Shown here piece by piece: positions 2,806 to 22,430 of a stretch of DNA of 36,252 nucleotides. The position numbers and the translations under genes were made by a program. The notes under the pieces were generated by a model that saw nothing but the letters and a program-made list of their open reading frames with translations, ran no database searches and had not been told where the DNA came from. Origin of the DNA: a virus; UHGV virus genome UHGV-0046263; one strand, given 5' to 3'. Position 1 is the first letter of the stretch, and each line of letters begins with the position of its first letter.

Positions 2806-3042
2806 ATGACTGGAAAAATCGCATTAGTTACAGCAAATCAAGACATGGCCGTGCGGCTTAAGGTGGAAAGGATGAACGAGCCTCGTTGTATTGCTCAGTT
2901 ATTGCGTAACGAAAGCCCAAGGGCGATTGACTTCACCATTACCCACGGTAAGGGGCGTAAGGGAATCATTATCCGCACCAAAAAACAGAGTCCGTTAAAG
3001 AAGGCTCTGACCTTTCTGAAAAGCCGGAGGGTCTGGAAATGA
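2806..3042 (+). CDS. Small hypothetical early protein (P2 orf78 position)
   Basis: 78 codons from MTGKIAL, in the orf78 position between cox and B; start uncertain (2785 or 2806). Confidence 0.5.
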   Translation: MTGKIALVTANQDMAVRLKVERMNEPRCIAQLLRNESPRAIDFTITHGKGRKGIIIRTKKQSPLKKALTFLKSRRVWK

Positions 3043-3539
3043 CAGTGATGACGCTCAATCTTGTTGAAAAACAGCCAGCAGCTATGCGCCGGATAATTGG
3101 TAAGCATCTGGCCGTCCCTCGCTGGCAGGAGACATGCGATTATTATAATCAGATGATGGAACGTGAACGGCTAACGGTTTGCTTCCATGCGCAGTTAAAA
3201 CAGCGTCACGCAACGATGCGTTTTGAAGAAATGAACGACGTCGAACGTGAACGGCTGGTTTGTGCAATTGATGAATTGCGTGGGGCATTCTCAAAACGCC
3301 GTCAGGTTGGCGCAAGTGAGTATGCATATATTAGTTTTTTAACAGTCAGTCAGCGTCGCACTTTATTTATGCACGCACGACTGACAGAAAAAGAATTTAA
3401 CCAGCCATACTGGCGAATTAATGAAGAATCATGTTACTGGCGTGATGCTTTATTCCGTGCATTACGTGAATTATTCAGTCTGTTTGAGTATGCACCGACA
3501 ATTCTGACGTCGGTAAAACCAGAGCAATATCTGCATTAA
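3039..3539 (+). CDS. B: Replication protein B (helicase-loader-like)
   Basis: 166 aa, the same length and position as P2 gpB; start overlaps the upstream stop. Confidence 0.8.
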   Translation: MTVMTLNLVEKQPAAMRRIIGKHLAVPRWQETCDYYNQMMERERLTVCFHAQLKQRHATMRFEEMNDVERERLVCAIDELRGAFSKRRQVGASEYAYISFLTVSQRRTLFMHARLTEKEFNQPYWRINEESCYWRDALFRALRELFSLFEYAPTILTSVKPEQYLH

Positions 3540-3602
3540 GTAATTAACCAGAGTTTTTAACGCACTTAATCGTGCGGGGCTTCTTTTTGCCTGGAGAAAG
3601 TC

Positions 3603-3827
3603 ATGCATACAGTTTCTGAAAATCAGTGCGGTAAATACGCATTACTGCTGCAACAGGCCAGAACCGAAGCACAGGCCGACGCTGCGACGCGCTTTTCTTC
3701 TCATCTTGACGCCATGATTCGCCATATCACAAAGGCGGAGTTATCCCGCGTGGAGATAGTCGAGCTGCTCAGTCAGGAGTCGGAAAAATTTCACAATATC
3801 GGATTGTCTCGCGGGGAGGTACTTTGA
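3603..3827 (+). CDS. Hypothetical early protein (P2 orf80 position)
   Basis: 74-aa ORF in the conserved early operon, translationally coupled to the next ORF. Confidence 0.5.
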
Positions 3828-4126
3828 TGTCCTGTTCTCATTCAGTTGTATTACTGAATAACGCCTTAAAAATCGCCGTTATGAAAAATGGCGATTTGTC
3901 TCTTATTCAACTTTGTCTTGATAAAGAAAAACGCGACATCACTGAATCTGTTATCGCGATTTATCAGAATGAATTAAACCTCCTGTCTGATGTGGTCAAT
4001 TTACTTGTTAAACGCGCTGTATTCCACAAGCAAATTTCCTCAGTGGATGAACTGACAAAATTAACGACAGAACTTGCCAGTTATTGCGCTGATGTATCCA
4101 GGAAACTTAACGATAAAAGGAGCTGA
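3824..4126 (+). CDS. Hypothetical early protein (P2 orf81 position)
   Basis: 100-aa ORF; start overlaps the upstream stop. Confidence 0.5.
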
Positions 4127-4128
4127 TA

Positions 4129-4353
4129 ATGCCGGACAACGTAGATTTTATTCAGGAACAACAGGCTGAATTACTGGAGCGCCAGATTAACGCGGCAAGG
4201 GTAAAACATTGCGGTGCTTCTGCGCTGGTTTGCGAAGAGTGTGACGCGCCAATACCTGCTGCCCGTCGTGCGGCTTATCCGTCAGCCACGCGTTGTGTTT
4301 CCTGTCAGTCAGTCTTTGAAGCAAAAAACAAACATTACCGGAGAATGGCATGA
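4129..4353 (+). CDS. TraR/DksA-type C4 zinc-finger protein (P2 orf82 position)
   Basis: CxxC...CxxC spacing (CEECD...CVSC) visible in the translation. Confidence 0.6.
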   Translation: MPDNVDFIQEQQAELLERQINAARVKHCGASALVCEECDAPIPAARRAAYPSATRCVSCQSVFEAKNKHYRRMA

Positions 4354-4625
4354 GCATTCGTATTGAAATTGGCGAACGTTATGTCGTTACCAGTGACAGC
4401 TTTCAGTTTATTCTCCACGAGAAAAAGAGAGCGGAAAGCGGTAAAAACGCCGGTCAGGAATGGCTGGCGGTGGTTGGTTATTACCCGAAATTAAGCCAGC
4501 TCGTTTCCGGCCTGATGCATCACGATATTCTGACCGGAAGCGCAAAGTCTTTTGCTGATTTAAACGCGCAGGTTGAGCAACTCAGCAAGCGTTGTTCAGA
4601 GGCTTTTGGCTCATATGGCCGTTAA
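4350..4625 (+). CDS. Hypothetical early protein (P2 orf83 position)
   Basis: 91-aa ORF; its stop overlaps the start of A. Confidence 0.5.
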   Translation: MSIRIEIGERYVVTSDSFQFILHEKKRAESGKNAGQEWLAVVGYYPKLSQLVSGLMHHDILTGSAKSFADLNAQVEQLSKRCSEAFGSYGR

Positions 4626-6900
4626 AGCCTCCGGGCGTTTTGTCCCTCCGTCAGCATTTGCCGCAGGCACCGGTAAGACGTTTACCGGTGCTTATGCATG
4701 GAACGCGCCACGCGAGGCCGTCGGGCGCGAAAGACCCCTTACACGTGACGAGATGCGTCAGGTGCAAGGGGTTTTATCCACGATTAACCGCCTGCCTTAC
4801 TTTTTGCGCTCGCTGTTTACTTCACGCTATGACTACATCCGGCGCAATAAAAGCCCGGTACACGGGTTTTATTTCCTCACATCCACTTTTCAGCGTCGTT
4901 TATGGCCGCGCATTGAGCGCGTGAATCAGCGCCATGAAATGAACACCGACGCGTCGTTGCTGTTTCTGGCAGAGCGTGACCACTATGCGCGCCTGCCTGG
5001 AATGAATGACAAGGAGCTGAAAAAGTTTGCCGCCCGTATCTCATCGCAGCTTTTCATGATGTATGAGGAACTCAGCGATGCCTGGGTGGATGCGCATGGC
5101 GAAAAAGAATCGCTGTTTACGGATGAGGCGCAGGCTCACCTGTATAGTCATGTTGCTGGCGCTGCACGTGCTTTCAATATTTCCCCGCTCTACTGGAAAA
5201 AATACCGTAAAGGACAGATGACCACGAGGCAGGCATATTCTGCCATTGCCCGCCTGTTTAACGATGAGTGGTGGACTCATCAGCTTAAAGGCCAGCGTAT
5301 GCGCTGGCATGAGGCGTTACTGATTGCTGTCGGGGAGGTCAATAAAGATCGTTCTCCTTATGCCAGTAAACACGCCATTCGTGATGTGCGTGCACGCCGC
5401 CAGGCAAATCTGGAATTTCTTAAATCGTGTGACCTCGAAAACAGGGAAACCGGCGAGCGCATCGACCTTATCAGTAAGGTGATGGGCAGTATTTCTAATC
5501 CTGAAATTCGCCGGATGGAGCTGATGAACACCATCGCCGGTATTGAGCGTTACGCCGCCGCAGAGGGTGATGTGGGGATGTTTATCACGCTGACCGCGCC
5601 GTCAAAGTATCACCCGACACGTCAGGTCGGAAAAGGAGAAAGTAAAACCGTGCAGCTTAATCACGGCTGGAATGATGAGGCATTTAATCCGAAGGATGCG
5701 CAGCGTTATCTCTGCCGTATCTGGAGCCTGATGCGCACGGCATTCAAGGATAATGATTTACAGGTCTACGGTTTGCGAGTCGTCGAGCCACACCACGACG
5801 GAACGCCGCACTGGCATATGATGCTTTTTTGTAATCCACGCCAGCGTAACCAGATTATCGAAATCATGCGTCGCTATGCGCTCAAAGAGGATGGCGACGA
5901 AAGAGGAGCCGCGCGAAACCGTTTTCAGGCGAAACACCTTAACCGGGGCGGTGCTGCGGGATATATCGCGAAATACATCTCAAAAAATATCGACGGCTAT
6001 GCACTGGATGGTCAGCTCGATAACGATACCGGCAGGCCGCTGAAAGACACTGCAGCGGCTGTTACCGCATGGGCGTCAACGTGGCGTATCCCGCAATTTA
6101 AAACGGTTGGCCTGCCGACAATGGGGGCTTACCGTGAACTACGCAAATTGCCTCGCGGCGTCAGCATTGCTGATGAGTTTGACGAACGCGTCGAGGCTGC
6201 ACGCGCCGCCGCAGACAGTGGTGATTTTGCGTTGTATATCAGCGCGCAGGGCGGGGCAAATGTCCCGCGCGATTGTCAGACTGTCAGGGTCGCCCGTAGC
6301 CCGTCGGATGACGTTAACGAGTACGAGGAAGAAGTCGAGAGAGTGGTCGGCATTTACGCGCCGCATCTCGGCACGCGTCATATTCATATCACCAGAACGA
6401 CGGACTGGCGCATTGTGCCGAAAGTTCCGGTCGTTGAGCCGTTGACTTTAAAAAGCGGCATCGCCGCGCCTCGGAGTCCTGTCAATAACTGTGGAAAGCT
6501 CACCGGTGGTGATACTTCGTCACCGGCTCCCACGCCTTCTGAACACGCCGTAGCAGTGCTTAATCTGGTAGATGACGGTGTTATCGAATGGAATGACCAG
6601 GAGGTCGTGAGGGCGCTCAGAGGTGCATTAAAACACGGTCTGAGAAGACCAAACCGTCAGCAAAGAAACGGAAGCCCGTTAAAACCGCATGAAATAGCGC
6701 CATCGGCCAGACTGACCCGGTCGGAACGAATGCAAATTACCCGTATCCGCGTTGACCTTGCTCAGAACGGTATCAGGCCACAGCGATGGGAGCTTGAGGC
6801 GCTGGCTCGGGGAGCGACCATAAATTATGGCGGGAAAAAATTCACGTATCCGGTCATTGATGAGTGGCCGGGATTCTCAACAGTAATGGAGTGGACATAA
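4615..6900 (+). CDS. A: Replication initiation endonuclease A (rolling-circle initiator)
   Basis: 762 aa from the ATG at 4615 (P2 gpA is 761 aa); contains HxH-type motifs (PHWHMMLF) and a tyrosine-rich active-site region (GYIAKYISKN). Confidence 0.85.
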   Translation: MAVKASGRFVPPSAFAAGTGKTFTGAYAWNAPREAVGRERPLTRDEMRQVQGVLSTINRLPYFLRSLFTSRYDYIRRNKSPVHGFYFLTSTFQRRLWPRIERVNQRHEMNTDASLLFLAERDHYARLPGMNDKELKKFAARISSQLFMMYEELSDAWVDAHGEKESLFTDEAQAHLYSHVAGAARAFNISPLYWKKYRKGQMTTRQAYSAIARLFNDEWWTHQLKGQRMRWHEALLIAVGEVNKDRSPYASKHAIRDVRARRQANLEFLKSCDLENRETGERIDLISKVMGSISNPEIRRMELMNTIAGIERYAAAEGDVGMFITLTAPSKYHPTRQVGKGESKTVQLNHGWNDEAFNPKDAQRYLCRIWSLMRTAFKDNDLQVYGLRVVEPHHDGTPHWHMMLFCNPRQRNQIIEIMRRYALKEDGDERGAARNRFQAKHLNRGGAAGYIAKYISKNIDGYALDGQLDNDTGRPLKDTAAAVTAWASTWRIPQFKTVGLPTMGAYRELRKLPRGVSIADEFDERVEAARAAADSGDFALYISAQGGANVPRDCQTVRVARSPSDDVNEYEEEVERVVGIYAPHLGTRHIHITRTTDWRIVPKVPVVEPLTLKSGIAAPRSPVNNCGKLTGGDTSSPAPTPSEHAVAVLNLVDDGVIEWNDQEVVRALRGALKHGLRRPNRQQRNGSPLKPHEIAPSARLTRSERMQITRIRVDLAQNGIRPQRWELEALARGATINYGGKKFTYPVIDEWPGFSTVMEWT

Positions 6901-7053
6901 TGGCAAAAATTCACGCAATATTAGATAATTTCGTACTGTATATATTTAGTGTTATTGAAAAATCTCGACAGAAAGAGTTTTCTGTATTTAATCGTTGCTT
7001 GCAGTTTGGTATTGTTTACCATGATTGTTTGTTAAGTGCTTTAAAGGTGAGGA

Positions 7054-8892
7054 ATGAGCGAGTTTGATGTTTTTTCTATTTCAGTTGATGATTTTAAAAA
7101 AAGTGAATACGCCAGTATATTATCATCGCCAAGAAGTTATTCTCATTTTGATATGGAGTCTTATTTTGTTCAGTTGTTGTCATCTTACAAGCTAAAAAAC
7201 GATGTAAGTTCTTGGCGGCTTTGCTATTTATTACGTGCGTTGTTTAATTTTAAATTTTCTAGGTCTGGTGATATTATCGGTTTTGAGCCAAAAATCATTC
7301 TCTATCCTGAGAGGGGCTATAGGCCTTCAGATTATAAGGAGAGTTTTTCAACAATATTAACTTGTATTAAAGAAAACTCCGATAATCCTTATATTATATC
7401 TAGGGTGTGTGATGTTTTATGGATAAATAACCGTAAGGATATAGACTCTGCCAATAAAGCAATAGAGTCATATTCTCTAATGGTTAATGATGCTTGCGAT
7501 ACTTTAATAGAAAAACAAGAGTCAGGTGATATCCATATTTTTGATGTTGTTGACTGCTTGGATAGAGGTATCGCAATATCGCGCATGCTTATTGGCAGGA
7601 AAAAACAACTACAAGGGGGGATAGTTGATTCGACATTAAGGTTATATCATGTATTAATAGACTCTGGTATATTCACCGGTGTATTAAGAGTTTCTGAAAT
7701 TCTTTATAAGAATAATTTATTGTGTCCCTTGCAATTGGCTGAGAATGCAGAAAAGATAGCTGATGAGCATTGTGGAGCGTCTTATTTTGATGCAGTGAAA
7801 AAATTGTTTTATTTTGCGTCTGAATTATATGTTAAAAACGATATGGAAGAGCAAGGAAGACGGTGCAGAATTAAAGCGTCAGAAATAACATTGGCTCAAT
7901 TTGAACAGTCTTCATCTTCAATATTGAAGGCTCATTGGTTAAGAGTTGCTCTTGGCGAATTTAGAGCAATTGGTGGAATGAATGAAGAAATTAAAAAGAT
8001 TAGAGAGGAATTGAATTCTATTCGAGATCAAATCAATGATGAAATGCACTTCTTTGCAATACCAATGGATCTTAGTGATGTTATCGCTCAGAAAGAGCAT
8101 GTTTATAATCAATTGGATTTCTCAAGGGTAATTAAAACTTTAATTGCTAGATTTAAGATTGTAAGTGCCAGTGAAATTATGGAAAGAGCTCGTTCCGATG
8201 CTAAAAAACATTTTTTTCTTAATATGAGTGAAACGGTTGTTTATGATGATAGAGGGCGCGTTGTAGCAAGTCGTTCACCTTTGGATCCTGCGGGGGATAT
8301 AAGTTTAAATGATGCTTGTGCAAATTATTTAAGAACTAGTAACATTGAGCATCAGGTCTATGTTTGTGGTGAGTTTGAAGTCGTTAGGCAAAGTGTGTTG
8401 GCTAGGTATTCATTAAATGAAAATACATTTGACCCAATCTCACAACAAAGTGCATTTGTTCCACCTGGGTATGCAGAAATATTTTCTTTGGGGTTTTATA
8501 AGCTTTGGCAGGGAGATTATGTGTCTGCCTGTTATTTGTTATTGCCGCAATTGGAGAATTCAATTAGATGGATTTTAGAATTAAGAAGAAAAGAAACAAC
8601 GAAAATAGATGTGTCGCTTTTTGAGGAGGCTACTAGCCTATCTCAAATGCTTGCAAATTATAGGAGTGAAATGGAAGGTGTTTTTGATAGTGATCATGTA
8701 TTGACTATGGATTTATTGTTCAATATGAAAGGTGGTGCTGCAATTAGACACACGATGGCTCATGGCAGGTATACTGTAAATCATTGTTATCAACCAACTT
8801 CAGTTTTTGCCTGTGTCTTTATCTTTTATTTAACTTGTTTGCCTTTATTTAGTGTATGGGAAGATAAAGTTGAACCTTATCTGGCTGATTAA
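7054..8892 (+). CDS. AT-rich cargo protein, 612 aa, unknown function; possible C-terminal HEPN-like domain (candidate abortive-infection/defence effector)
   Basis: Strong ribosome-binding site AAGGTGAGG 4 nt upstream of the ATG; long uninterrupted ORF; AT-rich relative to the phage backbone; sits where tin/old lie in P2; C-terminal LENSIRWIL...AAIRHTMAHG contains an Rx4H motif. Confidence 0.7.
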   Translation: MSEFDVFSISVDDFKKSEYASILSSPRSYSHFDMESYFVQLLSSYKLKNDVSSWRLCYLLRALFNFKFSRSGDIIGFEPKIILYPERGYRPSDYKESFSTILTCIKENSDNPYIISRVCDVLWINNRKDIDSANKAIESYSLMVNDACDTLIEKQESGDIHIFDVVDCLDRGIAISRMLIGRKKQLQGGIVDSTLRLYHVLIDSGIFTGVLRVSEILYKNNLLCPLQLAENAEKIADEHCGASYFDAVKKLFYFASELYVKNDMEEQGRRCRIKASEITLAQFEQSSSSILKAHWLRVALGEFRAIGGMNEEIKKIREELNSIRDQINDEMHFFAIPMDLSDVIAQKEHVYNQLDFSRVIKTLIARFKIVSASEIMERARSDAKKHFFLNMSETVVYDDRGRVVASRSPLDPAGDISLNDACANYLRTSNIEHQVYVCGEFEVVRQSVLARYSLNENTFDPISQQSAFVPPGYAEIFSLGFYKLWQGDYVSACYLLLPQLENSIRWILELRRKETTKIDVSLFEEATSLSQMLANYRSEMEGVFDSDHVLTMDLLFNMKGGAAIRHTMAHGRYTVNHCYQPTSVFACVFIFYLTCLPLFSVWEDKVEPYLAD

Positions 8893-9053
8893 TGGAAGTT
8901 GATTTAGGTATTTTGGCATTTATCTTTCTGCGTGCAATATGTGCATGGTTTTGCATGTGCCGGAGTTGCATGTTCCGGCCGTGCGTCCGCCAGGACGGGC
9001 GTGGCTCAAAAGCGGTATTGCACCTGCATTAAAACCGCCCCACGAAGCGGGCG

Positions 9054-9072
9054 GGCGAGGCGGGGAAAGCAC
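9054..9072. other. cos site (19-nt cohesive end, P2/P4 type) within a GC-rich structured packaging region (about 8930..9110)
   Basis: Exact match to GGCGAGGCGGGGAAAGCAC, the P2 cohesive end as I recall it; flanked by repeated TTGCATGT motifs and GC-rich hairpins. Confidence 0.55.
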
Positions 9073-9110
9073 TGCGCGCTAAACGATGTCGCTGGCTTGC
9101 AGTTACCCGG

Positions 9111-9139
9111 TTGAAATTCTTATTTTTTTGTTGCATTAT
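9111..9139 (+). promoter_or_regulatory. Sigma70-like promoter candidate (TTGAAA, 17-bp spacer, CATTAT) upstream of the RT module
   Basis: Hexamers and spacing read directly from the sequence; no experimental support. Confidence 0.3.
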
Positions 9140-9146
9140 TCTTAGC

Positions 9147-9395
9147 GCACCAGCGATTCGCTTGGTATGCGGCAGTCAACAACATTAAATTGTCAGTTTT
9201 TGCTTTTACAAAAAAGCGTCCACTATGGACCTATCAGCGAGGCCCCACCGTCGTCAACTACGATGGTGCCGTAGCCGACGACATTACGTACGGTCGAAAG
9301 ATAGCAGAGGCTGTTGCTGACAATTGTTGATGTAAGCATCTCTGCTGTTCCACCCTTGAGTATGGGAAGACCGTACGTAACTTTGAATTTGAATG
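9147..9395 (+). ncRNA. Candidate structured ncRNA upstream of the RT (possible retron msr/msd)
   Basis: About 250 nt non-coding between the promoter candidate and the RT start, with hairpin GCTTTT-ACAA-AAAAGC (9202..9217), a 13-bp imperfect stem (9250..9262 / 9270..9282) and a perfect 12-bp inverted repeat TTACGTACGGTC / GACCGTACGTAA (9284..9295 / 9369..9380) ending 17 nt before the RT ATG. Boundaries are not defined. Confidence 0.3.
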
Positions 9396-9397
9396 GT

Positions 9398-10588
9398 ATG
9401 TTTATGGATAAATTTAAACCATACAGCAAATCCAATGCTCCTATCACAACACTTGAAAAGTTGTCAAAGGCTTTATCGATTTCTGTTGAAGAGCTTAAAG
9501 CTATTGCAGAATTATCATTAGATGAGAAATATACTCTAAAAGAAATTCCCAAAATTGACGGAAGCAAACGGATTGTCTACTCCCTACATCCTAAAATGAG
9601 ATTATTACAGAGTAGAATTAATAAACGTATTTTTAAGGAATTGGTTGTTTTTCCTTCATTTTTGTTTGGTTCAGTTCCCAGTAAAAATGATGTTTTAAAT
9701 TCTAATGTCAAACGTGACTATGTTTCATGTGCAAAGGCTCATTGTGGAGCAAAAACAGTTCTCAAGGTGGATATAAGTAATTTTTTCGATAATATCCATA
9801 GAGATCTGGTTAGGAGCGTGTTTGAGGAGATATTGCATATTAAGGATGAGGCTCTTGAATACTTGGTGGATATATGTACTAAGGATGATTTTGTCGTACA
9901 GGGGGCCTTAACATCAAGCTATATAGCAACTTTGTGTTTATTCGCTGTTGAAGGGGATGTGGTAAGACGTGCGCAGAGGAAAGGACTTGTTTATACGCGT
10001 TTGGTAGATGATATTACCGTGTCATCTAAAATAAGTAATTATGATTTTTCTCAAATGCAAAGCCATATAGAGAGGATGCTTTCTGAGCATGACTTGCCGA
10101 TAAATAAGCACAAAACAAAAATATTTCACTGTTCATCTGAACCTATAAAAGTACATGGTTTAAGAGTTGACTATGACTCACCTCGACTACCATCCGATGA
10201 AGTCAAAAGAATCAGGGCATCTATACATAATTTGAAATTACTGGCGGCAAAAAATAACACAAAAACAAGTGTTGCATACAGAAAAGAATTCAATAGATGT
10301 ATGGGGAGAGTGAATAAGCTTGGCCGTGTTGGGCATGAAAAATATGAATCATTCAAGAAACAGTTGCAGGCAATAAAACCGATGCCATCTAAAAGAGATG
10401 TTGCTGTGATTGATGCAGCTATAAAAAGTTTAGAGTTGTCGTATTCGAAAGGTAATCAAAATAAACATTGGTATAAAAGAAAATATGATTTGACGAGATA
10501 TAAGATGATTATTCTTACTCGCTCTGAATCATTTAAAGAAAAACTGGAGTGTTTTAAATCTAGATTGGCATCTTTAAAACCATTATGA
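9398..10588 (+). CDS. Retron-type reverse transcriptase (about 396 aa from the ATG at 9398)
   Basis: RT motifs in canonical order: LSKALSISVEEL, GSKRIVYSLHPKMRLLQ, CAKAH (NAxxH-like), LKVDISNFFDNI, QGALTSSYIATL, YTRLVDDITVS (YADD box reads LVDD), INKHKTKI, VHGL (VTG-like). Start uncertain (TTG 9314, ATG 9362, 9398 or 9404). Confidence 0.85.
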   Translation: MFMDKFKPYSKSNAPITTLEKLSKALSISVEELKAIAELSLDEKYTLKEIPKIDGSKRIVYSLHPKMRLLQSRINKRIFKELVVFPSFLFGSVPSKNDVLNSNVKRDYVSCAKAHCGAKTVLKVDISNFFDNIHRDLVRSVFEEILHIKDEALEYLVDICTKDDFVVQGALTSSYIATLCLFAVEGDVVRRAQRKGLVYTRLVDDITVSSKISNYDFSQMQSHIERMLSEHDLPINKHKTKIFHCSSEPIKVHGLRVDYDSPRLPSDEVKRIRASIHNLKLLAAKNNTKTSVAYRKEFNRCMGRVNKLGRVGHEKYESFKKQLQAIKPMPSKRDVAVIDAAIKSLELSYSKGNQNKHWYKRKYDLTRYKMIILTRSESFKEKLECFKSRLASLKPL

Positions 10589-11292
10589 ATGCAAATATTA
10601 GACTTCTCAAATATATTGTCGGTGTGTCGTCAGCTCTTTTTTTGATTTTTTCGCTAATTTCTCTTTTTGAAACTATTCAGAATGAAAAGCTATATGAGCG
10701 TGATATATGCTTCGATAGCCAGTGCTTAAAATTTTTTGCGGAAAAAACATCTGGTATAGTAATGTATTTTCAGGCGTTTGGATGGCTTATAACAACTTTT
10801 GTTACCGTTTTTGGTGTTATGATTGCTTTGATGACATATAACGCTGGAGTTAAAAATAATAATAATAGTAATTACACTAGTCATCTGACGATGTTTAGAG
10901 AATTTGCAAGTGCTGAGTTAACTAAAAGAAGTAGCATCTATCCAGAGAAAGTTAATTTTTTTAGATGGTATAGGGTTATGTTCCCTGAAGCGCAAGGCGG
11001 TGATATATCTGTTTCGAGAGATTATCTAGAAATAATATCTAGAATCAAATGTGTTATTGAGGAAGCCAATGCACATATTACAGAGGAAAATAAAGACTAT
11101 AAATATAAAACTCATCAGAGAAAAATGATGGCTGTTTTGGATGAAATCGGTATATCGATTAGTAATGGGCCCAAAAATATTTTTATTGAGGTTGAGAGTC
11201 AAATTTTGGATTATATCGATACTATTAATTTGTCATTTTGTCACTCCTCATCAGTGATAGAATTAAGTAGAGTAAAAAGGAAGTATATATAG
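10585..11292 (+). CDS. Two-transmembrane-helix protein, 235 aa, translationally coupled to the RT (candidate effector)
   Basis: ATGA start/stop overlap with the RT; hydrophobic segments IVGVSSALFLIFSLISLF and FQAFGWLITTFVTVFGVMIALMTY; AT-rich. Confidence 0.75.
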   Translation: MNANIRLLKYIVGVSSALFLIFSLISLFETIQNEKLYERDICFDSQCLKFFAEKTSGIVMYFQAFGWLITTFVTVFGVMIALMTYNAGVKNNNNSNYTSHLTMFREFASAELTKRSSIYPEKVNFFRWYRVMFPEAQGGDISVSRDYLEIISRIKCVIEEANAHITEENKDYKYKTHQRKMMAVLDEIGISISNGPKNIFIEVESQILDYIDTINLSFCHSSSVIELSRVKRKYI

Positions 11293-11334: not shown

Positions 11335-12354
11335 TTATAAGTTATAATCAAGGGATTTTATGACTTCCATATCTAACCATTCATTTATTGACTTTATTCT
11401 CTCCTGTAATGGAGTGAGTTCATTGCGGACAAAGACCTTTGCCACTTTTTCAATATCTCCTAGTGACCCGACATTCTCCGGCTTACCGCCCATCAACTGA
11501 AAGGGGATGCGGTGTGCGTCCAGGAGATCTGCGGCGCTGACTTTTTTGATATTAAAAAAATCGTCCTTCGTCGCCACTTCACTGAGGGGGATAATTTTAA
11601 TGCCGTCGGCTTTCCCCTGTGGGGCATAGAGAAACAGGTTTTTAAAGTTGTTGCGGCCTTTCGACTTCACCATGTTTTCGCGAAGCATTTCGATATCGTT
11701 GCGATCCTGCACGGCATCGGTGACATACATGATGTATCCGGCATGAGCGCCGTTTTCGTAATACTTGCGGCGGAACAGCGTGGCCGACTCATTCAGCCAG
11801 GCAGAGTTAAGGGCGCTGAGATATTCCGGCAGGCCGTACAGCTCCTGATTGATATCCGGCTCCAGCAGGTGAAACACGGAGCCGGGCGCGAAGGCTGTCG
11901 GCTCGTTGAAGGACGGCACCCACCAGTAAACATCCTCCTCCACGCCACGGCGGGTATATTTTGCCGGTGAGGTTTCCAGTCTGATGACCTTACCGGTGGT
12001 GCTGTAACGCTTTTCCAGAAACGCATTACCGAACACCAGAAAATCCAGCACAAAGCGGCTGAAATCCTGCTGGGAAAGCCACGGATGCGGGATAAATGTC
12101 GAGGCCAGAATATTGCGTTTGACGTAAATCGGCGAGCTGTGATGCACGGCAGCACGCAGGCTTTTCGCCAGACCGGTAAAGCTGACCGGCGGCTCATACC
12201 ATCTGCCGTTACTGATGCACTCGACGTAATCCAGAATGTCACGGCGGTCGAGTACCGGCACCGGCTCGCCAAAGGTGAATGCCTCCATTTTCGGGGCGCT
12301 GGCGGTCATTTTTTTTGCCGCAGGTTGCGGTGTTTTCCCTTTTTTCTTGCTCAT
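11335..12354 (-). CDS. Q: Portal protein
   Basis: 339 aa, position and orientation as P2 gpQ; start overlaps the P stop. Confidence 0.85.
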   Translation of the reverse strand: MSKKKGKTPQPAAKKMTASAPKMEAFTFGEPVPVLDRRDILDYVECISNGRWYEPPVSFTGLAKSLRAAVHHSSPIYVKRNILASTFIPHPWLSQQDFSRFVLDFLVFGNAFLEKRYSTTGKVIRLETSPAKYTRRGVEEDVYWWVPSFNEPTAFAPGSVFHLLEPDINQELYGLPEYLSALNSAWLNESATLFRRKYYENGAHAGYIMYVTDAVQDRNDIEMLRENMVKSKGRNNFKNLFLYAPQGKADGIKIIPLSEVATKDDFFNIKKVSAADLLDAHRIPFQLMGGKPENVGSLGDIEKVAKVFVRNELTPLQERIKSINEWLDMEVIKSLDYNL

Positions 12355-14126
12355 CAGTAAAACTCCAGAATGGTGGATGTCAGCGGGGTGCTGATACCGG
12401 CGGTGAGTGGCTCATTTAACAGGGCGTGCATGGTCGCCCAGGCGAGGTCGGCGTGGCTGGCTTCCTCGCTGCGGCTGGCCTCATAGGTGGCGCTGCGTCC
12501 GCTGCTGGTCATGGTCTTGCGGATAGCCATAAACGAGCTGGTGATGTCGGTGGCGCTGACGTCATATTCCAGACAGCCACGGCGGATGACGTCTTTTGCC
12601 TTGAGCACCATTGCGGTTTTCATTTCCGGCGTGTAGCGGATGTCGCGCGCGGCGGGATAGAACGAGCGCACGAGCTGGAACACGCCGACACCGAGGCCGG
12701 TGGCATCAATACCGATGTATTCGACGTTGTATTTTTCGGTGAGTTTGCGGATGGATTCAGCCTGAGTGGCAAAGTCCATGCCTTTCCACTGGTGACGCTC
12801 AAGGATCCTGAATTTGCCACCGGCCACCACCGGCGGTGCCAGTACCACGCATCCTGCGCTGTCGCCACGGTGTGACGGGTCGTAACCAATCCATACCGGT
12901 CGGGAGCCGAACGGATTTGCGGCAAACGGCGCATAGTCTTCCCATTCTTCCAGCGTGTCGACCATGCAGCGTTGCAGCTCCTCAAACGGGAACACCGACG
13001 CCTTGTCGTCAACAAATTCACACATGAACAGGTTTTTAAAATCGTCGGCGCTGTTTTCGCGTTTGAGCTGCTCAATGTCGAACAGCGTGCAGCCGCCTTT
13101 CAGGGCGTCCTCAATGGTGACAATCTGTCGCCACTGGCCGTCCGCACAGAGAAGCCCACCGGCAAGGGCGTTATGACTGACGTCGATTTCCACGCGTTCG
13201 GCGGCGCTGGCGCGTCCCCGGTTGAACAGTTCACCCGACCAGAACGGGTAGGCGTCGTGTGCCAGCGTGGACGGGGTGGAGAAATAGGTCGAGCGCAGGT
13301 GACTCTGTGAGGCCATACCTGATGCCACCTTACGCAGTACCTGAAAATTCGGGATCCAGAAAATCTCGTCGACGTACAGGTCGCCGTTATGGCTCTGCGC
13401 GGTGTTGGAGTTGGTGCCGAGAAAAATCAGTTTTGCGCCGTTATTGCCCAGGACAATCGGGTCACCGGTCAGGTCAACGTCAACCAGACGGGCAAAGGCG
13501 ATGATGTATTCGCGGAACACATACGCCTGCGTTTTACTGGCCGACAGAAAAATCTGGTTATGACCGGTTTTCAGGGCGCGCAGCAGCGCCTCGCGGGAAA
13601 AATAAAACGTCGCGCCAATCTGGCGGGATTTCAGGATATCGCGGATGCGGTGCTCAAGCCCGGCGCGATACCAGTGCAACTGATATTCGAAAGACTGCTC
13701 AAAGAAAATCTGCTCCAGCTTTTCGATGGCCTCGTCACTGAAAAAATTCTTTTTCGGTTTGCGCCGCCCGCCTTTGTTGCGGTTAGCGACGTTCGGATTA
13801 AGGTCTGCCTCGTTGCCGGTCTGGCTGTAGCGGTTGACCCGTGCCAGTCGTTCAATCTGGCGTCCCAGCAGGTCAATTTCCTTGAAGTCACCGCCGGTTT
13901 TCTGCGGTTTGATGATGAGCTGGGTCAGCCGCGCTTCCAGACTCATTTCGACACGGCTGATGGGGGCAACGCTGTCCCAGCCGTCGCGCTGTTTCCAGCT
14001 CTGCACCGTCGGGCGTTTCATCTGCAACATGGCGGCAATCTGCGGCACGGAAAACCCCTGCCAGTACAGCAGCGCCGCCTGACGACGCGGGTCGTGTAAA
14101 AGAGTGGTGTCTGTGGTGATGGTCAT
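12354..14126 (-). CDS. P: Terminase large subunit (ATPase)
   Basis: 590 aa from MTITTDTTLL (same length as P2 gpP); GAGGT ribosome-binding site; the longer ORF to 14156 is less likely. Confidence 0.9.
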   Translation of the reverse strand: MTITTDTTLLHDPRRQAALLYWQGFSVPQIAAMLQMKRPTVQSWKQRDGWDSVAPISRVEMSLEARLTQLIIKPQKTGGDFKEIDLLGRQIERLARVNRYSQTGNEADLNPNVANRNKGGRRKPKKNFFSDEAIEKLEQIFFEQSFEYQLHWYRAGLEHRIRDILKSRQIGATFYFSREALLRALKTGHNQIFLSASKTQAYVFREYIIAFARLVDVDLTGDPIVLGNNGAKLIFLGTNSNTAQSHNGDLYVDEIFWIPNFQVLRKVASGMASQSHLRSTYFSTPSTLAHDAYPFWSGELFNRGRASAAERVEIDVSHNALAGGLLCADGQWRQIVTIEDALKGGCTLFDIEQLKRENSADDFKNLFMCEFVDDKASVFPFEELQRCMVDTLEEWEDYAPFAANPFGSRPVWIGYDPSHRGDSAGCVVLAPPVVAGGKFRILERHQWKGMDFATQAESIRKLTEKYNVEYIGIDATGLGVGVFQLVRSFYPAARDIRYTPEMKTAMVLKAKDVIRRGCLEYDVSATDITSSFMAIRKTMTSSGRSATYEASRSEEASHADLAWATMHALLNEPLTAGISTPLTSTILEFY

Positions 14127-14192
14127 GAATACCTCGCCGTGATGAATACACGGCAAGGCTACTGAGTCGCGCCCTGCGATTCGCTAAGGTGC

Positions 14193-14198
14193 TGTTGT
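14193..14198 (+). promoter_or_regulatory. TGTTGT element in the P/O divergent late-promoter region (candidate Ogr-type activator half-site)
   Basis: Same hexamer recurs upstream of V (21374..21379) and FI (29711..29716); P2 late promoters carry a TGT-N12-ACA activator site. Confidence 0.3.
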
Positions 14199-14299
14199 GT
14201 CAGTGATAAGCCATCCGGGACTGATGGCGGAGGATGCGCATCGTCGGGAAACTGATGCCGACATGTGACTCCTCTAATCACTATTCAGGACTCCTGACA

Positions 14300-15154
14300 A
14301 TGGCAAAAAAAGTCTCAAAATTCTTTCGTATCGGCGTTGAGGGTGACACCTGTGACGGGCGTGTCATCAGTGCGCAGGATATTCAGGAAATGGCCGAAAC
14401 CTTTGACCCGCGAGTCTATGGTTGCCGCATTAACCTGGAACATCTGCGCGGCATCCTGCCTGACGGCATTTTTAAGCGTTATGGCGATGTGGTCGAACTG
14501 AAGGCCGAAAAGATTGACGATGATTCGGCGCTGAAAGGCAAATGGGCGCTGTTTGCGAAAATCACCCCGACCGATGACCTTATCGCGATGAACAAGGCCG
14601 CGCAGAAGGTCTATACCTCAATGGAAATTCAGCCGAACTTTGCCAATACCGGCAAATGTTATCTGGTGGGTCTGGCCGTCACCGATGACCCGGCAAGCCT
14701 CGGCACGGAATACCTGGAATTCTGCCGCACGGCAAAACACAACCCCCTGAACCGCTTCAAATTAAGCCCTGAAAACCTGATTTCAGTGGCAACGCCTGTT
14801 GAGCTGGAATTTGAAGACCTGCCTGAAACCGTGTTCACCGCCCTGACCGAAAAGGTGAAATCCATTTTTGGCCGCAAACAGGCCAGCGATGACGCCCGTC
14901 TGAATGACGTGCATGAAGCGGTGACCGCTGTTGCTGAACATGTGCAGGAAAAACTGAGCGCCACTGAGCAGCGCCTCGCTGAGATGGAAACCGCCTTTTC
15001 CGCACTTAAGCAGGAGGTGACTGACAGGGCGGATGAAACCAGCCAGGCATTCACCCGCCTGAAAAACAGCCTCGACCACACCGAAAGTCTGACCCAGCAG
15101 CGCCGCAGCAAGGCCACCGGCGGTGGCGGTGACGCCCTGATGACGAACTGCTGA
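14300..15154 (+). CDS. O: Capsid scaffold protein
   Basis: Starts MAKKVSKFFRIGVEGD as P2 gpO does; 284 aa. Confidence 0.85.
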   Translation: MAKKVSKFFRIGVEGDTCDGRVISAQDIQEMAETFDPRVYGCRINLEHLRGILPDGIFKRYGDVVELKAEKIDDDSALKGKWALFAKITPTDDLIAMNKAAQKVYTSMEIQPNFANTGKCYLVGLAVTDDPASLGTEYLEFCRTAKHNPLNRFKLSPENLISVATPVELEFEDLPETVFTALTEKVKSIFGRKQASDDARLNDVHEAVTAVAEHVQEKLSATEQRLAEMETAFSALKQEVTDRADETSQAFTRLKNSLDHTESLTQQRRSKATGGGGDALMTNC

Positions 15155-15212
15155 CCGGCGTCAGTCAGTCCGGGAAAACCTTCACGATTAACCCTTAATT
15201 TCAGGAAAAACT

Positions 15213-16286
15213 ATGCGCCAGGAAACCCGCTTTAAATTTAATGCCTACCTGTCCCGTGTTGCCGAACTGAACGGCATCGACGCCGGTGATGTGTCGAAAA
15301 AATTCACCGTTGAACCGTCGGTCACCCAGATCCTGATGAACACCATGCAGGAGTCCTCTGATTTTCTGACCCGCATCAACATTGTGCCGGTCAGCGAAAT
15401 GAAAGGGGAAAAAATTGGTATTGGTGTCACCGGCTCCATCGCCAGCACCACCGACACCGCCGGTGGCACCGAGCGTCAGCCGAAGGACTTCTCGAAGCTG
15501 GCGTCAAACAAGTACGAATGCGACCAGATTAACTTCGATTTTTATATCCGCTACAAAACGCTGGACCTGTGGGCGCGTTATCAGGATTTCCAGCTCCGTA
15601 TCCGTAACGCCATTATCAAACGCCAGTCCCTTGATTTCATCATGGCCGGTTTTAACGGCGTGAAGCGTGCCGAAACCTCTGACCGCAGCAGCAATCCGAT
15701 GCTGCAGGATGTGGCGGTCGGCTGGCTGCAGAAATACCGCAATGAAGCCCCGGCGCGCGTGATGAGCAAGGTTACTGACGAGGAAGGTCACACCACCTCT
15801 GAGGTCATCCGCGTGGGTAAGGGTGGTGATTATGCCAGCCTCGATGCACTGGTGATGGATGCGACCAACAACCTGATTGAGCCGTGGTATCAGGAAGACC
15901 CTGACCTTGTGGTGATTGTGGGGCGTCAGCTACTGGCGGACAAGTATTTCCCCATCGTTAACAAGGAGCAGGACAACAGCGAGATGCTGGCCGCTGACGT
16001 CATCATCAGCCAGAAACGCATCGGCAACCTGCCGGCGGTACGCGTCCCGTACTTCCCGGCGGATGCGATGCTCATCACGAAGCTGGAAAACCTGTCCATC
16101 TACTACATGGATGACAGCCATCGCCGCGTGATTGTGGAAAACCCGAAACTCGACCGCGTGGAGAACTACGAGTCAATGAACATTGATTACGTGGTGGAAG
16201 ACTACGCCGCCGGTTGTCTGGTGGAAAAAATTAAGGTCGGTGATTTCTCCACACCGGCTAAAGCGACCGCAGAGCCGGGAGCGTAA
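15213..16286 (+). CDS. N: Major capsid protein
   Basis: 357 aa, the same length and position as P2 gpN. Confidence 0.9.
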   Translation: MRQETRFKFNAYLSRVAELNGIDAGDVSKKFTVEPSVTQILMNTMQESSDFLTRINIVPVSEMKGEKIGIGVTGSIASTTDTAGGTERQPKDFSKLASNKYECDQINFDFYIRYKTLDLWARYQDFQLRIRNAIIKRQSLDFIMAGFNGVKRAETSDRSSNPMLQDVAVGWLQKYRNEAPARVMSKVTDEEGHTTSEVIRVGKGGDYASLDALVMDATNNLIEPWYQEDPDLVVIVGRQLLADKYFPIVNKEQDNSEMLAADVIISQKRIGNLPAVRVPYFPADAMLITKLENLSIYYMDDSHRRVIVENPKLDRVENYESMNIDYVVEDYAAGCLVEKIKVGDFSTPAKATAEPGA

Positions 16287-16289
16287 CCG

Positions 16290-17033
16290 ATGACGAGTCC
16301 CGCACAGCGCCACATGATGCGGGTCTCGGCAGCGATGACCGCGCAGCGGGAAGCCGCCCCGCTGCGACATGCAACTGTCTATGAGCAGATGCTGGTCAAG
16401 CTGGCCGCAGACCAGCGCACACTGAAAGCGATTTATTCAAAAGAGCTGAAGGCCGCGAAAAAACGCGAACTGCTGCCGTTCTGGTTGCCGTGGGTGAACG
16501 GCGTGCTGGAGCAGGGCAAAGGTGCACAGGATGACATTCTGATGACGGTCATGCTGTGGCGTCTGGATACCGGCGATATTGCCGGTGCGCTGGAGATTGC
16601 CCGTTATGCCCTGAAGTATGGTCTGACCATGCCGGGGAAACACCGCCGCACCCCGCCGTACATGTTCACCGAGGAGGTGGCGCTTGCGGCCATGCGCGCT
16701 CACGCTGCCGGTGAGTCTGTGGATCCCCGCCTGCTGACGGACACCCTTGAACTGACCGCCACGGCTGACATGCCTGATGAAGTGCGCGCAAAGCTGCACA
16801 AAATCACCGGTCTGTTTCTGCGTGACGCTGGTGATGCCGCCGGTGCGCTGGCGCACCTGCAACGTGCGACACAGCTCGACTGTCAGGCAGGCGTCAAAAA
16901 AGAGATTGAACGACTGGAGCGGGAGCTGAAACCGAAGCCGGAGCCGCAGCCCAAAGCGGCCACCCGCGCCCCGCGTAAGACCCGGAGCGTGACACCGGCA
17001 AAACGTGGACGCCCGAAAAAGAAAGCCAGTTAA
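16290..17033 (+). CDS. M: Terminase small subunit / endonuclease
   Basis: 247 aa as P2 gpM, with a basic C-terminal tail. Confidence 0.85.
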   Translation: MTSPAQRHMMRVSAAMTAQREAAPLRHATVYEQMLVKLAADQRTLKAIYSKELKAAKKRELLPFWLPWVNGVLEQGKGAQDDILMTVMLWRLDTGDIAGALEIARYALKYGLTMPGKHRRTPPYMFTEEVALAAMRAHAAGESVDPRLLTDTLELTATADMPDEVRAKLHKITGLFLRDAGDAAGALAHLQRATQLDCQAGVKKEIERLERELKPKPEPQPKAATRAPRKTRSVTPAKRGRPKKKAS

Positions 17034-17132
17034 CAACCGAATGCGCCCCGCGCCAGGGCGGCACGCCGGTCAGTGAGGGTGAATCACCTGACACTGCACC
17101 GGCGTCCACCGCCCGACTTTTCAGAGGTAGTC

Positions 17133-17642
17133 ATGATGACGCTGATTATTCCGCGAAAGGAGGCTCCCGTGTCCGGTGAGGGTACGGTGGTCATCCCGCA
17201 ACCGGCAGGCGACGAGCCGGTGATTAAAAACACGTTCTTTTTTCCCGATATCGACCCGAAGCGCGTCCGGGAACGTATGCGCCTTGAGCAGACCGTCGCC
17301 CCCGCCCGTCTGCGTGAGGCCATCAAGTCAGGCATGGCGGAGACGAATGCGGAGCTGTACGAGTACCGCGAACAGAAAATTGCCGCCGGTTTTACGTGTC
17401 TGGCGGAAGTCCCGGCGGACGACATCGACGGTGAAAGCATCAAAGTTTTTTACTACGAGCGCGCCGTGTGTGCGATGGCGACCGCGTCGCTTTATGAGCG
17501 TTATCGCGGCGTGGATGCCAGTGCCAAAGGCGACAAGAAGGCCGACAGCATTGACAGCACCATTGATGAGCTGTGGCGGGATATGCGCTGGGCAGTGGCG
17601 CGAATCCAGGACAAGCCGCGCTGCATTGTGAGTCAAATCTGA
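17133..17642 (+). CDS. L: Head completion protein
   Basis: 169 aa from MMTLIIPRKEAP; GAGGTAG ribosome-binding site; the upstream ORF extension is unlikely. Confidence 0.8.
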   Translation: MMTLIIPRKEAPVSGEGTVVIPQPAGDEPVIKNTFFFPDIDPKRVRERMRLEQTVAPARLREAIKSGMAETNAELYEYREQKIAAGFTCLAEVPADDIDGESIKVFYYERAVCAMATASLYERYRGVDASAKGDKKADSIDSTIDELWRDMRWAVARIQDKPRCIVSQI

Positions 17643-17845
17643 TGAAGACCTTTGCGCTACAGGGCGACACGCTCGACGCCATCTGTGTCCGGTATTACGG
17701 GCGCACTGAGGGCGTGGTCGAGGCCGTGCTCGCCGCAAATCCGGGACTGGCTGAACTGGGTGCGGTGCTGCCGCACGGCACCGCCGTCGAACTGCCCGAC
17801 GTTCAGACCGCGCCCGTGGCTGAAACTGTCAATCTGTGGGAGTAA
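17642..17845 (+). CDS. X: Tail protein X
   Basis: 67 aa from MKTFALQGD; start overlaps the L stop (TGATG). Confidence 0.75.
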   Translation: MKTFALQGDTLDAICVRYYGRTEGVVEAVLAANPGLAELGAVLPHGTAVELPDVQTAPVAETVNLWE

Positions 17846-17848
17846 CGC

Positions 17849-18130
17849 ATGACAGCAGAAGAAAAAAGCGTCCTGTCGCTTTTCATGATTGGGGTGCTGA
17901 TTGTTGTCGGCAAGGTGCTTGCCGGTGGTGAACCCATCACCCCGCGTCTGTTTATCGGGCGCATGTTACTCGGTGGTTTTGTCTCGATGGTTGCCGGTGT
18001 TGTTCTGGTGCAGTTTCCTGACCTGTCACTGCCTGCGGTGTGCGGCATCGGCTCCATGCTGGGTATCGCCGGTTATCAGGTGATTGAGATTGCCATTCAG
18101 CGCCGCTTTAAGGGCAGGGGGAAACCGTAA
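17849..18130 (+). CDS. Y: Holin
   Basis: 93 aa with hydrophobic helices and a charged C-terminus (RRFKGRGKP); the first gene of the lysis cassette. Confidence 0.8.
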   Translation: MTAEEKSVLSLFMIGVLIVVGKVLAGGEPITPRLFIGRMLLGGFVSMVAGVVLVQFPDLSLPAVCGIGSMLGIAGYQVIEIAIQRRFKGRGKP

Positions 18131-18627
18131 TGCCGGTAATTAACACGCATCAGAATATCGCCGCCTTTCTCGACATGCTGGCCGTGTCCGAAGGGACGGC
18201 GAATCATCCGCTGACGAAAAACCGGGGCTATGACGTGATAGTCACCGGACTGGACGGAAAGCCGGAAATTTTCACCGACTACAGTGACCACCCGTTCGCA
18301 CATGGCCGACCGGCGAAGGTGTTTAACCGTCGCGGTGAAAAATCAACGGCCTCCGGTCGCTATCAGCAGCTTTACCTGTTCTGGCCGCATTACCGCAAAC
18401 AGCTTGCCCTGCCGGATTTCAGTCCGTTGTCACAGGACAGACTCGCCATTCAGTTGATCCGCGAACGCGGTGCACTGGATGACATCCGGGCGGGACGCAT
18501 TGAACGCGCCATTTCACGCTGTCGCAATATCTGGGCGTCCCTGCCGGGTGCCGGTTACGGTCAGCGTGAGCATTCACTGGAAAAACTGGTCACCGTCTGG
18601 CGTACCGCTGGCGGCGTACCGGCTTAA
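18130..18627 (+). CDS. K: Endolysin
   Basis: 165 aa, P2 gpK length and position; ATG overlaps the holin stop. Confidence 0.85.
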   Translation: MPVINTHQNIAAFLDMLAVSEGTANHPLTKNRGYDVIVTGLDGKPEIFTDYSDHPFAHGRPAKVFNRRGEKSTASGRYQQLYLFWPHYRKQLALPDFSPLSQDRLAIQLIRERGALDDIRAGRIERAISRCRNIWASLPGAGYGQREHSLEKLVTVWRTAGGVPA

Positions 18628-18641
18628 ACGGAGTAAACACC

Positions 18642-19067
18642 ATGAAGAAATTATCCCTTTCACTGATGCTGAACGTGTCGCTGGCGCTGATGCTGGCACT
18701 GTCCCTGATTTACCCGCAGAGCGTGGCCGTCAGTTTTGTCGCCACCTGGGCGATTCTGGCGACGGTTATCTGTGTGGTTGCCGGTGGTGTCGGCATGTAT
18801 GCCACTGAGTATGTACTGGAACGCTACGGACGGGAGCTGCCGCCGGAATCGCTGGCCGTGAAGATTGTCACGTCGCTGTTTTTGCAGCCGGTGCCGTGGC
18901 GCAGACGGGCAGTGGCTCTGGTAGTGGTGGTGGCGACGTTTATCTCGCTGGTCGCTGCCGGGTGGATTTTTACCGCGCTGATTTATCTTGTGGCATCGGT
19001 GTTCTTCCGGTTGATACGTACGGCCTGCTGTCAGCGTTTTGAGGGGTGGGAACCATGTCAAGGCTGA
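18642..19067 (+). CDS. lysA: LysA, membrane lysis-timing protein
   Basis: 141 aa, multiple hydrophobic helices; P2 lysA position. Confidence 0.7.
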   Translation: MKKLSLSLMLNVSLALMLALSLIYPQSVAVSFVATWAILATVICVVAGGVGMYATEYVLERYGRELPPESLAVKIVTSLFLQPVPWRRRAVALVVVVATFISLVAAGWIFTALIYLVASVFFRLIRTACCQRFEGWEPCQG

Positions 19068-19480: not shown

Positions 19481-19625
19481 CCCGGAGACGAACGGCGATT
19501 TAAGTGCCGATATCCGGCAGCTTGAGAACGCGCTGGCACGCTGTGCCAGCCAGGTAAAAATGATTAAACACTGTCAGGACGAAAACGATGCTCAAACCCG
19601 ACAGCCTGCGCAGGGCGCTGACTGA
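19335..19625 (+). CDS. lysC: LysC, Rz1-like outer-membrane lipoprotein spanin, overlapping lysB in another frame
   Basis: 96 aa from MKTKIFAAGMALTCLMLCAGC with a lipobox-like LCAGC signal; overlaps the lysB 3' end and the R start. Confidence 0.6.
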   Translation: MKTKIFAAGMALTCLMLCAGCTSVRPALTPVIVHNACPKVSLCPMPGSDPETNGDLSADIRQLENALARCASQVKMIKHCQDENDAQTRQPAQGAD

Positions 19626-20500: not shown

Positions 20501-20530
20501 TTTTATCCAGGCAGAGGCTGATGCGCAATT

Positions 20531-20565: not shown

Positions 20566-20571
20566 AGAGGT

Positions 20572-21357: not shown

Positions 21358-21373
21358 TACGCTCTCCTTGAAT

Positions 21374-22426: not shown

Positions 22427-22430
22427 AACC

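Follow-up and report, generated by a model that had tools for sequence, protein, structure and literature searches.

We analysed the 36,252-nucleotide virus genome UHGV-0046263 (one strand; the whole stretch is referred to here as the window) around the cohesive-end site (cos) that separates two of its gene modules. With high confidence, positions 8930-9080 represent the cos of an apparently intact P2-like Escherichia coli prophage, whose short TGCAT sites would be read by the terminase. The cos as such is an ordinary and already known member of the P2/P4 family. Comparison with relatives leads to a broader and tentative proposal, to which we give rather less than even weight. In the P2 family, cos might be a tripartite signal of ~155 bp (-130..+25, counted from the cut), in which an array of TGCAT sites (A, B and C) lies 72 nt from a dyad in the core and forms an unannotated, cosB-like subsite for terminase recognition. 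Helper phages and satellites of the P4 type would have this subsite in common, from Enterobacterales to Burkholderiales, and its motif would read YGCAG in phiCTX and Smp131.

The site is recognised by its 19-nt 5' cohesive-end sequence, GGCGAGGCGGGGAAAGCAC, which has a single match in the window with up to three mismatches permitted and is matched in 0/100 shuffles. The same sequence is annotated as cosL (1-19) and cosR (33575-33593) of P2 (NC_001895), and the P2 cohesive end is quoted identically in the literature (PMC3931495). The base that corresponds to 9072 is the last one in the linear record of Yersinia phage L-413C, and the same point forms the start or the end of other P2-like records. 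We infer that the top strand would be nicked 5' of 9054 and the bottom strand after 9072. Ziermann and Calendar (1990, Gene 96:9) reportedly described the cos of P2, P4 and 186 with 19-nt 5' cohesive ends. The region 8930-9110 of the window begins gcgtgcaatatgTGCATggttttGCATgtgccggagttGCATgttccggccgtgcgtccgccaggacgggcgtggctcaaaagcggtattgcaccTGCATtaaaaccgccccacgaagcgggcgGGCGAGGCGGGGAAAGCACtgcgcgct and contains the following elements:

9018..9079, + strand: conserved cos core (-36..+25), 62 bp, containing the nicking site cosN
9018-9029: first core element, TTGCAccTGCAT (family consensus ATGCAnnTGCAT), followed in the core by TAAAACCGCCCC
9054..9072, + strand: cosN, the 19-nt 5' cohesive-end sequence, an exact match to P2
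9073-9079: last core element, TGCGCGC

The limits of the core were taken from a first data set of 120 viral contigs with the exact 19-mer, registered on the cut and representing 112 distinct loci. Over these loci, per-position conservation stays at 0.8-1.0 between -36 and +25 and falls off steeply beyond either limit, and the window matches the consensus. The core is conserved in every P2/P4-type element examined and is present in 2,128 of 5,426 complete E. coli genomes; most records of the phage collection share only 9019-9080 with the window. The conserved core at 9018-9079 corresponds to the '55-bp core' of P2/P4 cos, which is attributed to Ziermann and Calendar (1990) in passages of three later papers (PMC9594776; PMC5694545; PMC5247547).

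The surroundings of this core are those of P2. The window and P2 are collinear, with 96-97% identity that extends through the tail genes, and the window is 100% identical to sequence of E. coli GN02461 (NZ_CP095533.1). In the collinear alignment, a block from B to A (2858-6915) equals P2 26277-30334 and a block from Q to H (11396-25297) equals P2 263-14158, with 97.4% identity over the collinear Q/P side. The open reading frames (ORFs) of the integrase, gpA, gpQ, gpP and gpM are all intact:

1000-1995: integrase, intact ORF
4573-6900, + strand: gpA, left of cos as in P2
11335-12354, - strand: gpQ portal protein (Pfam Phage_portal)
12354-14156, - strand: gpP large terminase, the enzyme cutting cos (Pfam Terminase_6N/6C/Terminase_5)
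16290-17033, + strand: gpM small terminase, candidate reader of the TGCAT array (Pfam Phage_term_smal, 1.2e-47)

The terminase subunits are 98-100% identical to the P2 proteins (gpM 98%). Gene order and orientation follow P2 as well, with the 19-mer on the + strand and then Q and P on the - strand, transcribed toward cos. The window thus unites the features that mark a P2/P4-type cos, namely the 19-mer, the ~55-bp core, the location between A and Q and the cognate gpP and gpM genes. By homology, the left end of the virion chromosome would be formed by the side running from the right-hand cargo (a retron) to Q, and the right end by the side running from A to the left-hand cargo (ORF612). An earlier reading of the sequence alone (the original prediction) had matched the 19-mer to the P2/P4 cohesive end and had placed the reverse transcriptase (RT) module at the extreme left and the 612-aa gene at the right of the packaged genome. 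Alignment to the P2 termini bears out the first claim. P2 collinearity agrees with the second, the RT module lying between cosL and Q and the 612-aa gene between A and cosR.

Left of the core, a second and position-fixed layer of sequence becomes visible once relatives are superimposed on the cut. We compared 64 left flanks, obtained by making the viral set non-redundant by 8-mer content. A second set was picked via the gpQ protein and not via cos; it holds one genome per species for 79 Enterobacterales species and includes 11 variants of the 19-mer. The flanks are otherwise unrelated (majority-base frequency of ~0.3-0.45 at -96..-82). TGCAT recurs in them at four places:

-127..-121: TGCAT in 33/64 flanks
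-113..-109: TGCAT in 50/64 flanks
-103..-99: TGCAT in 52/64 flanks
-31..-27: TGCAT in 59/64 flanks, within the core

Between -130 and -95, the 64 flanks carry 2.28 copies per sequence, as against 0.02 expected from a background of 0.0007 per position. The first site occurs in several registers (17 copies at -124, 10 at -121 and 8 at -120). Neighbouring sites are spaced by 10 nt in 51 cases and by 13 nt in 11, and the last upstream TGCAT lies 72 nt from the TGCAT of the core in 34 cases, 71 nt in 9 and 73 nt in 3. The core itself contains an ATGCA-NN-TGCAT dyad. The 79 species show the same peaks, at -124 (30), -120 (23), -111 (52), -101 (53) and -29 (76). In individual phages and satellites the sites start as follows:

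P2: -123, -111, -101, -29
P4: -124, -111, -101, -29
186: -124, -111, -101, -29
PSP3: -120, -111, -101, -29
Ralstonia phage RSA1: -129, -110, -100, -29
Burkholderia phage AP3: -123, -110 (CGCAT), -100, -29
Stenotrophomonas phage Smp131: CGCAG at -129, -112 and -102; TGCAG at -29
Pseudomonas phage phiCTX: TGCAG at -109; CGCAG at -99, -83 and -37; TGCAG at -28

In phiCTX and Smp131 every copy, in the core and upstream, has changed from TGCAT to YGCAG with the layout kept. Their gpP proteins are each other's nearest relatives (72% vs 56-62% identity to the others), and so are their gpM proteins (49% vs 38-48%). The phiCTX record annotates 'R3-R6 repeats' and a site for IHF near cos. HP1 differs both in its cos and in its repeat (CACGGAAA at -109, -45 and -15 from the record end) and is not alignable to the P2 architecture; the record end of phiE202 is not at cos. 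In the open-access literature on P2/P4 cos, which deals with the 55-bp core only and to which the 1990 primary paper and the classic reviews do not belong, the upstream TGCAT repeats are not described. Nor did the accessible literature yield data on DNA binding by the small terminase subunit (TerS) in the P2 family.

The window takes part in this array with two of its three TGCAT copies, which start at 8942, 8952 and 8967. The relevant elements are:

8933..8937, + strand: site A, degenerate (TGCAA), in the -121 register, which is one of two common ones for the first site
8942-8946 and 8952-8956, + strand: TGCAT sites B and C, 10 nt apart, at -112 and -102
8959..8979, + strand: inverted repeat gCCGGA..TCCGGc (8959-8964/8974-8979) around the third TGCAT (8967-8971, -87), lineage-specific
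8984-8988/8993-8997: inverted repeat CGTCC/GGACG, overlapping a semi-conserved GC box
8988..9006, + strand: semi-conserved GC box, CGCCAGGACGGGCGTGGCT in the window (family consensus cGCCAGnnCTGGCGCGGnT at -66..-48)
9035-9040/9049-9054: inverted repeat CCGCCC/GGGCGG (core stem)

The three copies are the sole cluster of three within 35 nt in the 36 kb. For the window taken by itself this is weak evidence, since 845 of 20,000 random placements of its 32+43 TGCAT copies contain such a cluster (p ~0.04). Once relatives are compared, two of the three become highly significant, and by their positions those at 8942 and 8952 belong to the family-wide array. At site A, where the window reads TGCGTGCAATATG, the close relative L068 reads TGCATGCAATATG. 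The window's array lies 1 nt farther from cos than in most relatives, a shift common to its closest relatives. The third copy and the CCGGA/TCCGG stem around it are confined to the closest relatives (L089 and L027) and both are broken in L068 and L104; neither the 64 flanks nor the 79 species have a TGCAT peak at -87. Compared with the cos of P2, P4 and 186, the window has the same 19-mer (as P2 and P4), core, position between gpA and gpQ, orientation and TGCAT offsets. It differs in nothing essential; its own traits are the degenerate site A, the 1-nt shift and the extra lineage-specific TGCAT within a hairpin.

The inverted repeats fare less well than the array. As single-stranded DNA, 8930-9110 is not more stable than dinucleotide shuffles (z = -0.39; 60/200 shuffles equal or better), and the hairpins were therefore dropped as structural signals. 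The core stem CCGCCC/GGGCGG was rejected as a maintained structure because about half of the relatives carry CCGACC with no compensating change. The GC box has majority-base frequencies of 0.6-0.8 in the 79 species and 0.5-0.77 in the 64 viral flanks and is absent from P2 itself. The original prediction had seen in this region three motifs at roughly 13-nt spacing together with GC-rich hairpins, and had considered them plausible recognition elements for terminase. The three copies exist, with spacings of 10 and 15 nt and not a regular 13; two of them belong to the fixed array, for which a terminase role is likely. The third copy is not conserved in the family, and neither are the CCGGA/TCCGG and core hairpins, which are real as inverted repeats but show no conservation as structure and no excess folding stability. 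The GC-rich character of the region was described correctly, with 62% GC in the cos span against 34% in the left cargo, 32-34% in the right cargo and 54-55% in the backbone.

Two further observations concern the cos span itself. On the minus strand, the core at 9035-9054 scores as an intrinsic-terminator-like element (CCGCCCGCTTCGTGGGGCGG followed by TTTTAATGCA), which would face transcription from the Q side; as its stem is unconserved in about half of the relatives, this may be coincidence. A 60-aa ORF with a GTG start (8932-9114) spans cos, and some P2-like records annotate a 'hypothetical protein' there. Since it matches no family and the DNA under its left (N-terminal) half is not conserved, we regard it as a probable annotation artefact.

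Taken together, the P2-family cos is strongly asymmetric. To the right, conservation ends at +25 and the retron cargo of the window begins at about +27. To the left, three layers follow one another, i.e., the core with its TGCAT dyad up to -36, a spacer and the array at about -124, -111 and -101. The spacer has a constant length (72 +/- 1 nt) and a sequence that is free except for the semi-conserved GC box, which ties the array to the nicking site and not to the neighboring gene. We propose that, after excision and replication, gpP together with gpM would nick at 9054 and 9072 with a 19-nt stagger. The TGCAT sites might serve as sequence-specific terminase binding sites, via gpM or an N-terminal helix-turn-helix of gpP, and would then correspond in function to the R sites of lambda cosB. 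The fixed spacer might let the protein bound upstream reach the nicking site. For its packaging, the satellite P4 relies on the P2 terminase, and cos is all that it has in common with P2 (PMC9122126). Since P4 keeps the array at the same offsets, reading of TGCAT by the terminase is suggested. The concerted switch to YGCAG in phiCTX and Smp131 is likewise as expected of sites that are read by one co-evolving protein.

The comparison with lambda is instructive as an analogy. The cos of lambda is built from cosQ, cosN and cosB, the last with the sites R3, R2 and R1 for TerS gpNu1 and the IHF site I1 (PMC4669245). As in a lambda-type cosB, copies of a short motif (-124, -111, -101 and -29) lie at fixed spacing beside cosN, so that in both systems the nicking site would be flanked on one side by ~120 bp with spaced motif copies, in a total of ~150-200 bp. 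The two differ in that they share no sequence similarity, in the overhang (19 nt vs 12 nt), and in the arm concerned, since the P2-family repeats lie on the right-end arm and the cosB of lambda on the left end. Furthermore, no IHF site is evident in the spacer of the window. P2 is reported to prefer monomeric circles as packaging substrate. Reading the packaging direction from the side of the array was considered and set aside, because the accessible literature does not state which P2 end enters first.

Several points weigh against parts of the reading of 8930-9080 as a cos whose TGCAT sites are read by the terminase. The genome ends are placed by collinearity with P2 and not by mapped virion ends, and the terminase role of the TGCAT sites rests on sequence comparison and on the lambda analogy, which covers recognition only and not packaging direction. 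The covariation argument is weak (n = 1), because the switch from TGCAT to YGCAG was probably one evolutionary event. In the window, site A is degenerate and the array is displaced by 1 nt from its usual offset. Finally, transcription of old-tin in P2 begins on the minus strand at 33424 and 33426 (-151 and -149), and the -35 region of the old-tin promoter, with a -35-like TTGAAT, would overlap TGCAT site A, the first of the array. The array might thus be a transcription signal, either an insulator or terminator or a leftward promoter or operator serving the right-end cargo, and its apparent conservation would be due only to its travelling with cos. TTGCAT does loosely resemble a -35 hexamer, and the CCGCCC..GGGCGG stem of the core, with TTTT after it on the minus strand, has a terminator-like score. 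The offset of the array from the cut is constant, however, whatever the gene on the left or its orientation. ORF612 in the window and psu in P4 are transcribed toward cos, so that no leftward promoter is needed. Moreover, the spacer is randomised in sequence but held at 72 +/- 1 nt, which ties the array to cosN, and in phiCTX and Smp131 the core copy at -29 has changed in concert with those upstream. We therefore consider a transcription signal improbable.

A host protein might also be the reader of the TGCAT sites. In lambda, cosB requires a host bending protein between the R sites (PMC4669245), and a DNA-bending or nucleoid protein could aid cleavage of the P2-family cos in the manner of IHF at I1. 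The IHF site annotated in phiCTX near the cos-proximal repeats and the fixed spacer, which suggests DNA bending, would fit such a role. On the other hand, phages of Enterobacterales, Ralstonia and Burkholderia all retain TGCAT, the motif differs in Pseudomonas and Stenotrophomonas phages that belong to a distinct terminase clade, and the spacer of the window is GC-rich (60-70% GC) and, judged by eye, has no A/T-rich IHF-like element. TGCAT is not known to match any host-factor consensus. A host-factor site is thus unlikely, distinctly so when set beside recognition by the terminase. An origin of a different kind would have the cargo modules arrive as one cassette that contained cos, or would make cos an uncut relic in a defective prophage. 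Both modules do occur with identical sequence in six complete E. coli genomes. A single cassette is at odds with 15/21 genomes that carry ORF612 without the retron and 51/57 that carry the retron without ORF612, with the other partners found for each, and with homology breakpoints at the cos core; a relic is at odds with collinearity to P2 at 96-97% and with the intact A, Q, P, M and int ORFs. Either variant of this origin is highly improbable. The preferred reading thus remains a functional-looking P2-type cos with an array that the terminase would recognise.

The two modules that abut this cos occupy the presumptive ends of the mature genome:

7054..8892, + strand: ORF612, candidate defence protein of 612 aa (DUF7380 / PDC-S39); right end of the mature genome
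9111..11292, + strand: Ec48-family (type IV) retron; left end of the mature genome

ORF612 matches Pfam DUF7380 (1.9e-24) and PADLOC PDC-S39 (2e-68). It equals the deposited 'P2-EC46 proviral ORF612' (AM157366), a variant of the TO region, and the left flank of cos (8700-9026) is 99.7% identical to the P2-EC46 ORF612 DNA. Odegrip et al. are said to have treated the TO region of P2 in 2006.

On the other side, the retron RT (ORF 9314-10588, with the RefSeq start at ~9404) matches PADLOC RT_IV (1.1e-176), and the adjacent effector (10585-11292) matches PADLOC 2TM_IV (4.1e-85) and bears the RefSeq name 'retron Ec48 family effector membrane protein'. The pairing of a clade-IV RT with an adjacent 2TM effector defines a type IV retron, and both proteins match the type IV profiles as in retron Ec48; the non-coding RNA (ncRNA) is only putative. 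Its presumed region (9111-9403) opens with a promoter-like, sigma-70-like site (TTGAAA-17-CATTAT, 9111-9139) and includes a candidate a1/a2 pair of a putative msr-msd, a perfect 9-nt inverted repeat (AATTGTCAG/CTGACAATT at 9188-9196/9317-9325), as well as a 13-nt stem (9250-9262/9270-9282). RNA folding of 9140-9320 gives z = -2.33. Rfam returned nothing credible, neither for cos nor for a retron ncRNA, in the whole window at gathering thresholds and in 8850-9400 at E <= 5. The right flank of cos (9024-9400) is 99.7% identical to phage pro147. At its far side, homology to P2 ends at 11396 (P2 263) within the 3' end of gpQ (11335-11396), so that the joint where the cargo recombined on the right is situated in the portal gene; gpQ is 339 aa long in the window and 344 aa in P2. 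Because P2 homology stops inside Q, the last ~20 Q codons and the P2 tQ terminator region have been exchanged along with the retron cassette.

ORF612 and the retron were acquired independently, as the original prediction had proposed for the RT module and the 612-aa gene. Among the 5,426 complete E. coli genomes, ORF612 occurs in 21, the retron in 57 and both in only 6. The homologies to P2-EC46 (up to 9026) and to pro147 (from 9024) are joined inside the cos core. Other pairings are found, since in ECC-1470 ORF612 is paired with two different small genes before Q, and in ET791 and pro147 the retron is paired with a different gene left of cos. This rare co-occurrence, together with the other partners and the breakpoints at the cos core, argues for two separate acquisitions. 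If only ~160 bp (-130..+26) are constrained, cassettes could be inserted on either side, which would account for two unrelated AT-rich defence modules abutting one cos.

The interval between gpA and gpQ around cos has been described as a defence hotspot, with retrons among its systems and with many hotspots occupied by more than one of them (Rousset et al., 2022; PMC9122126), and the interval from cosL to Q has been suggested as an insertion hotspot, for example for ctx of phiCTX (PMC5694545). Consistent with this, the window holds variable non-backbone genes between gpA and gpQ that match defence families. It is a typical instance of the cos-proximal hotspot of P2, with cargo on both sides and no difference from what is known, and both the arrangement and the two cargo genes have already been described. 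In the sample anchored on gpQ, the interval between cos and Q exceeds 1 kb in 26/79 species. All distant P2-family phages inspected carry cargo between cosL and Q, i.e., the ctx toxin in phiCTX, PAAR/DUF4123/immunity-52 genes resembling a type VI secretion effector module in RSA1, a toxin-antitoxin pair in AP3 and a DNA methyltransferase in Smp131.

Elsewhere in the window, the classical variable locus Z/fun of P2 (P2 15361-17429) is replaced at 26537-29585, probably by another defence cassette. Two of its proteins and one gene beyond the integrase end were noted:

26653-27714, + strand: 353-aa protein of the Z/fun locus with a weak Lit / Peptidase_U49 match
28238-29380, - strand: 380-aa protein of the Z/fun locus matching the PADLOC endonuclease-effector, PDC-M68A and SduA N-terminal models
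171-968, - strand: 265-aa radical-SAM / 4Fe-4S protein with a weak PADLOC pVip match, presumably a host gene beside the attachment site

For this prophage, the analysis fixes the genome ends of a P2-like element by homology and identifies ORF612 and the retron as independent occupants of a described hotspot. The array, the spacer length and the core could be used together as a specific cos signature for programs that find prophages and satellites, and the switch from TGCAT to YGCAG offers a natural handle on the DNA specificity of terminases. If the array is a packaging signal, minimal P2/P4 cos cassettes should span about -130..+26 and not the 55-bp core. A tripartite cos, if true, would make the array the inner boundary of the right-end cargo hotspot and would explain the better transduction reported for cosmids with longer cos flanks (PMC9594776). 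Should the array prove both functional and previously undescribed, the packaging signal of the P2 family would be redefined as a tripartite site of ~155 bp.

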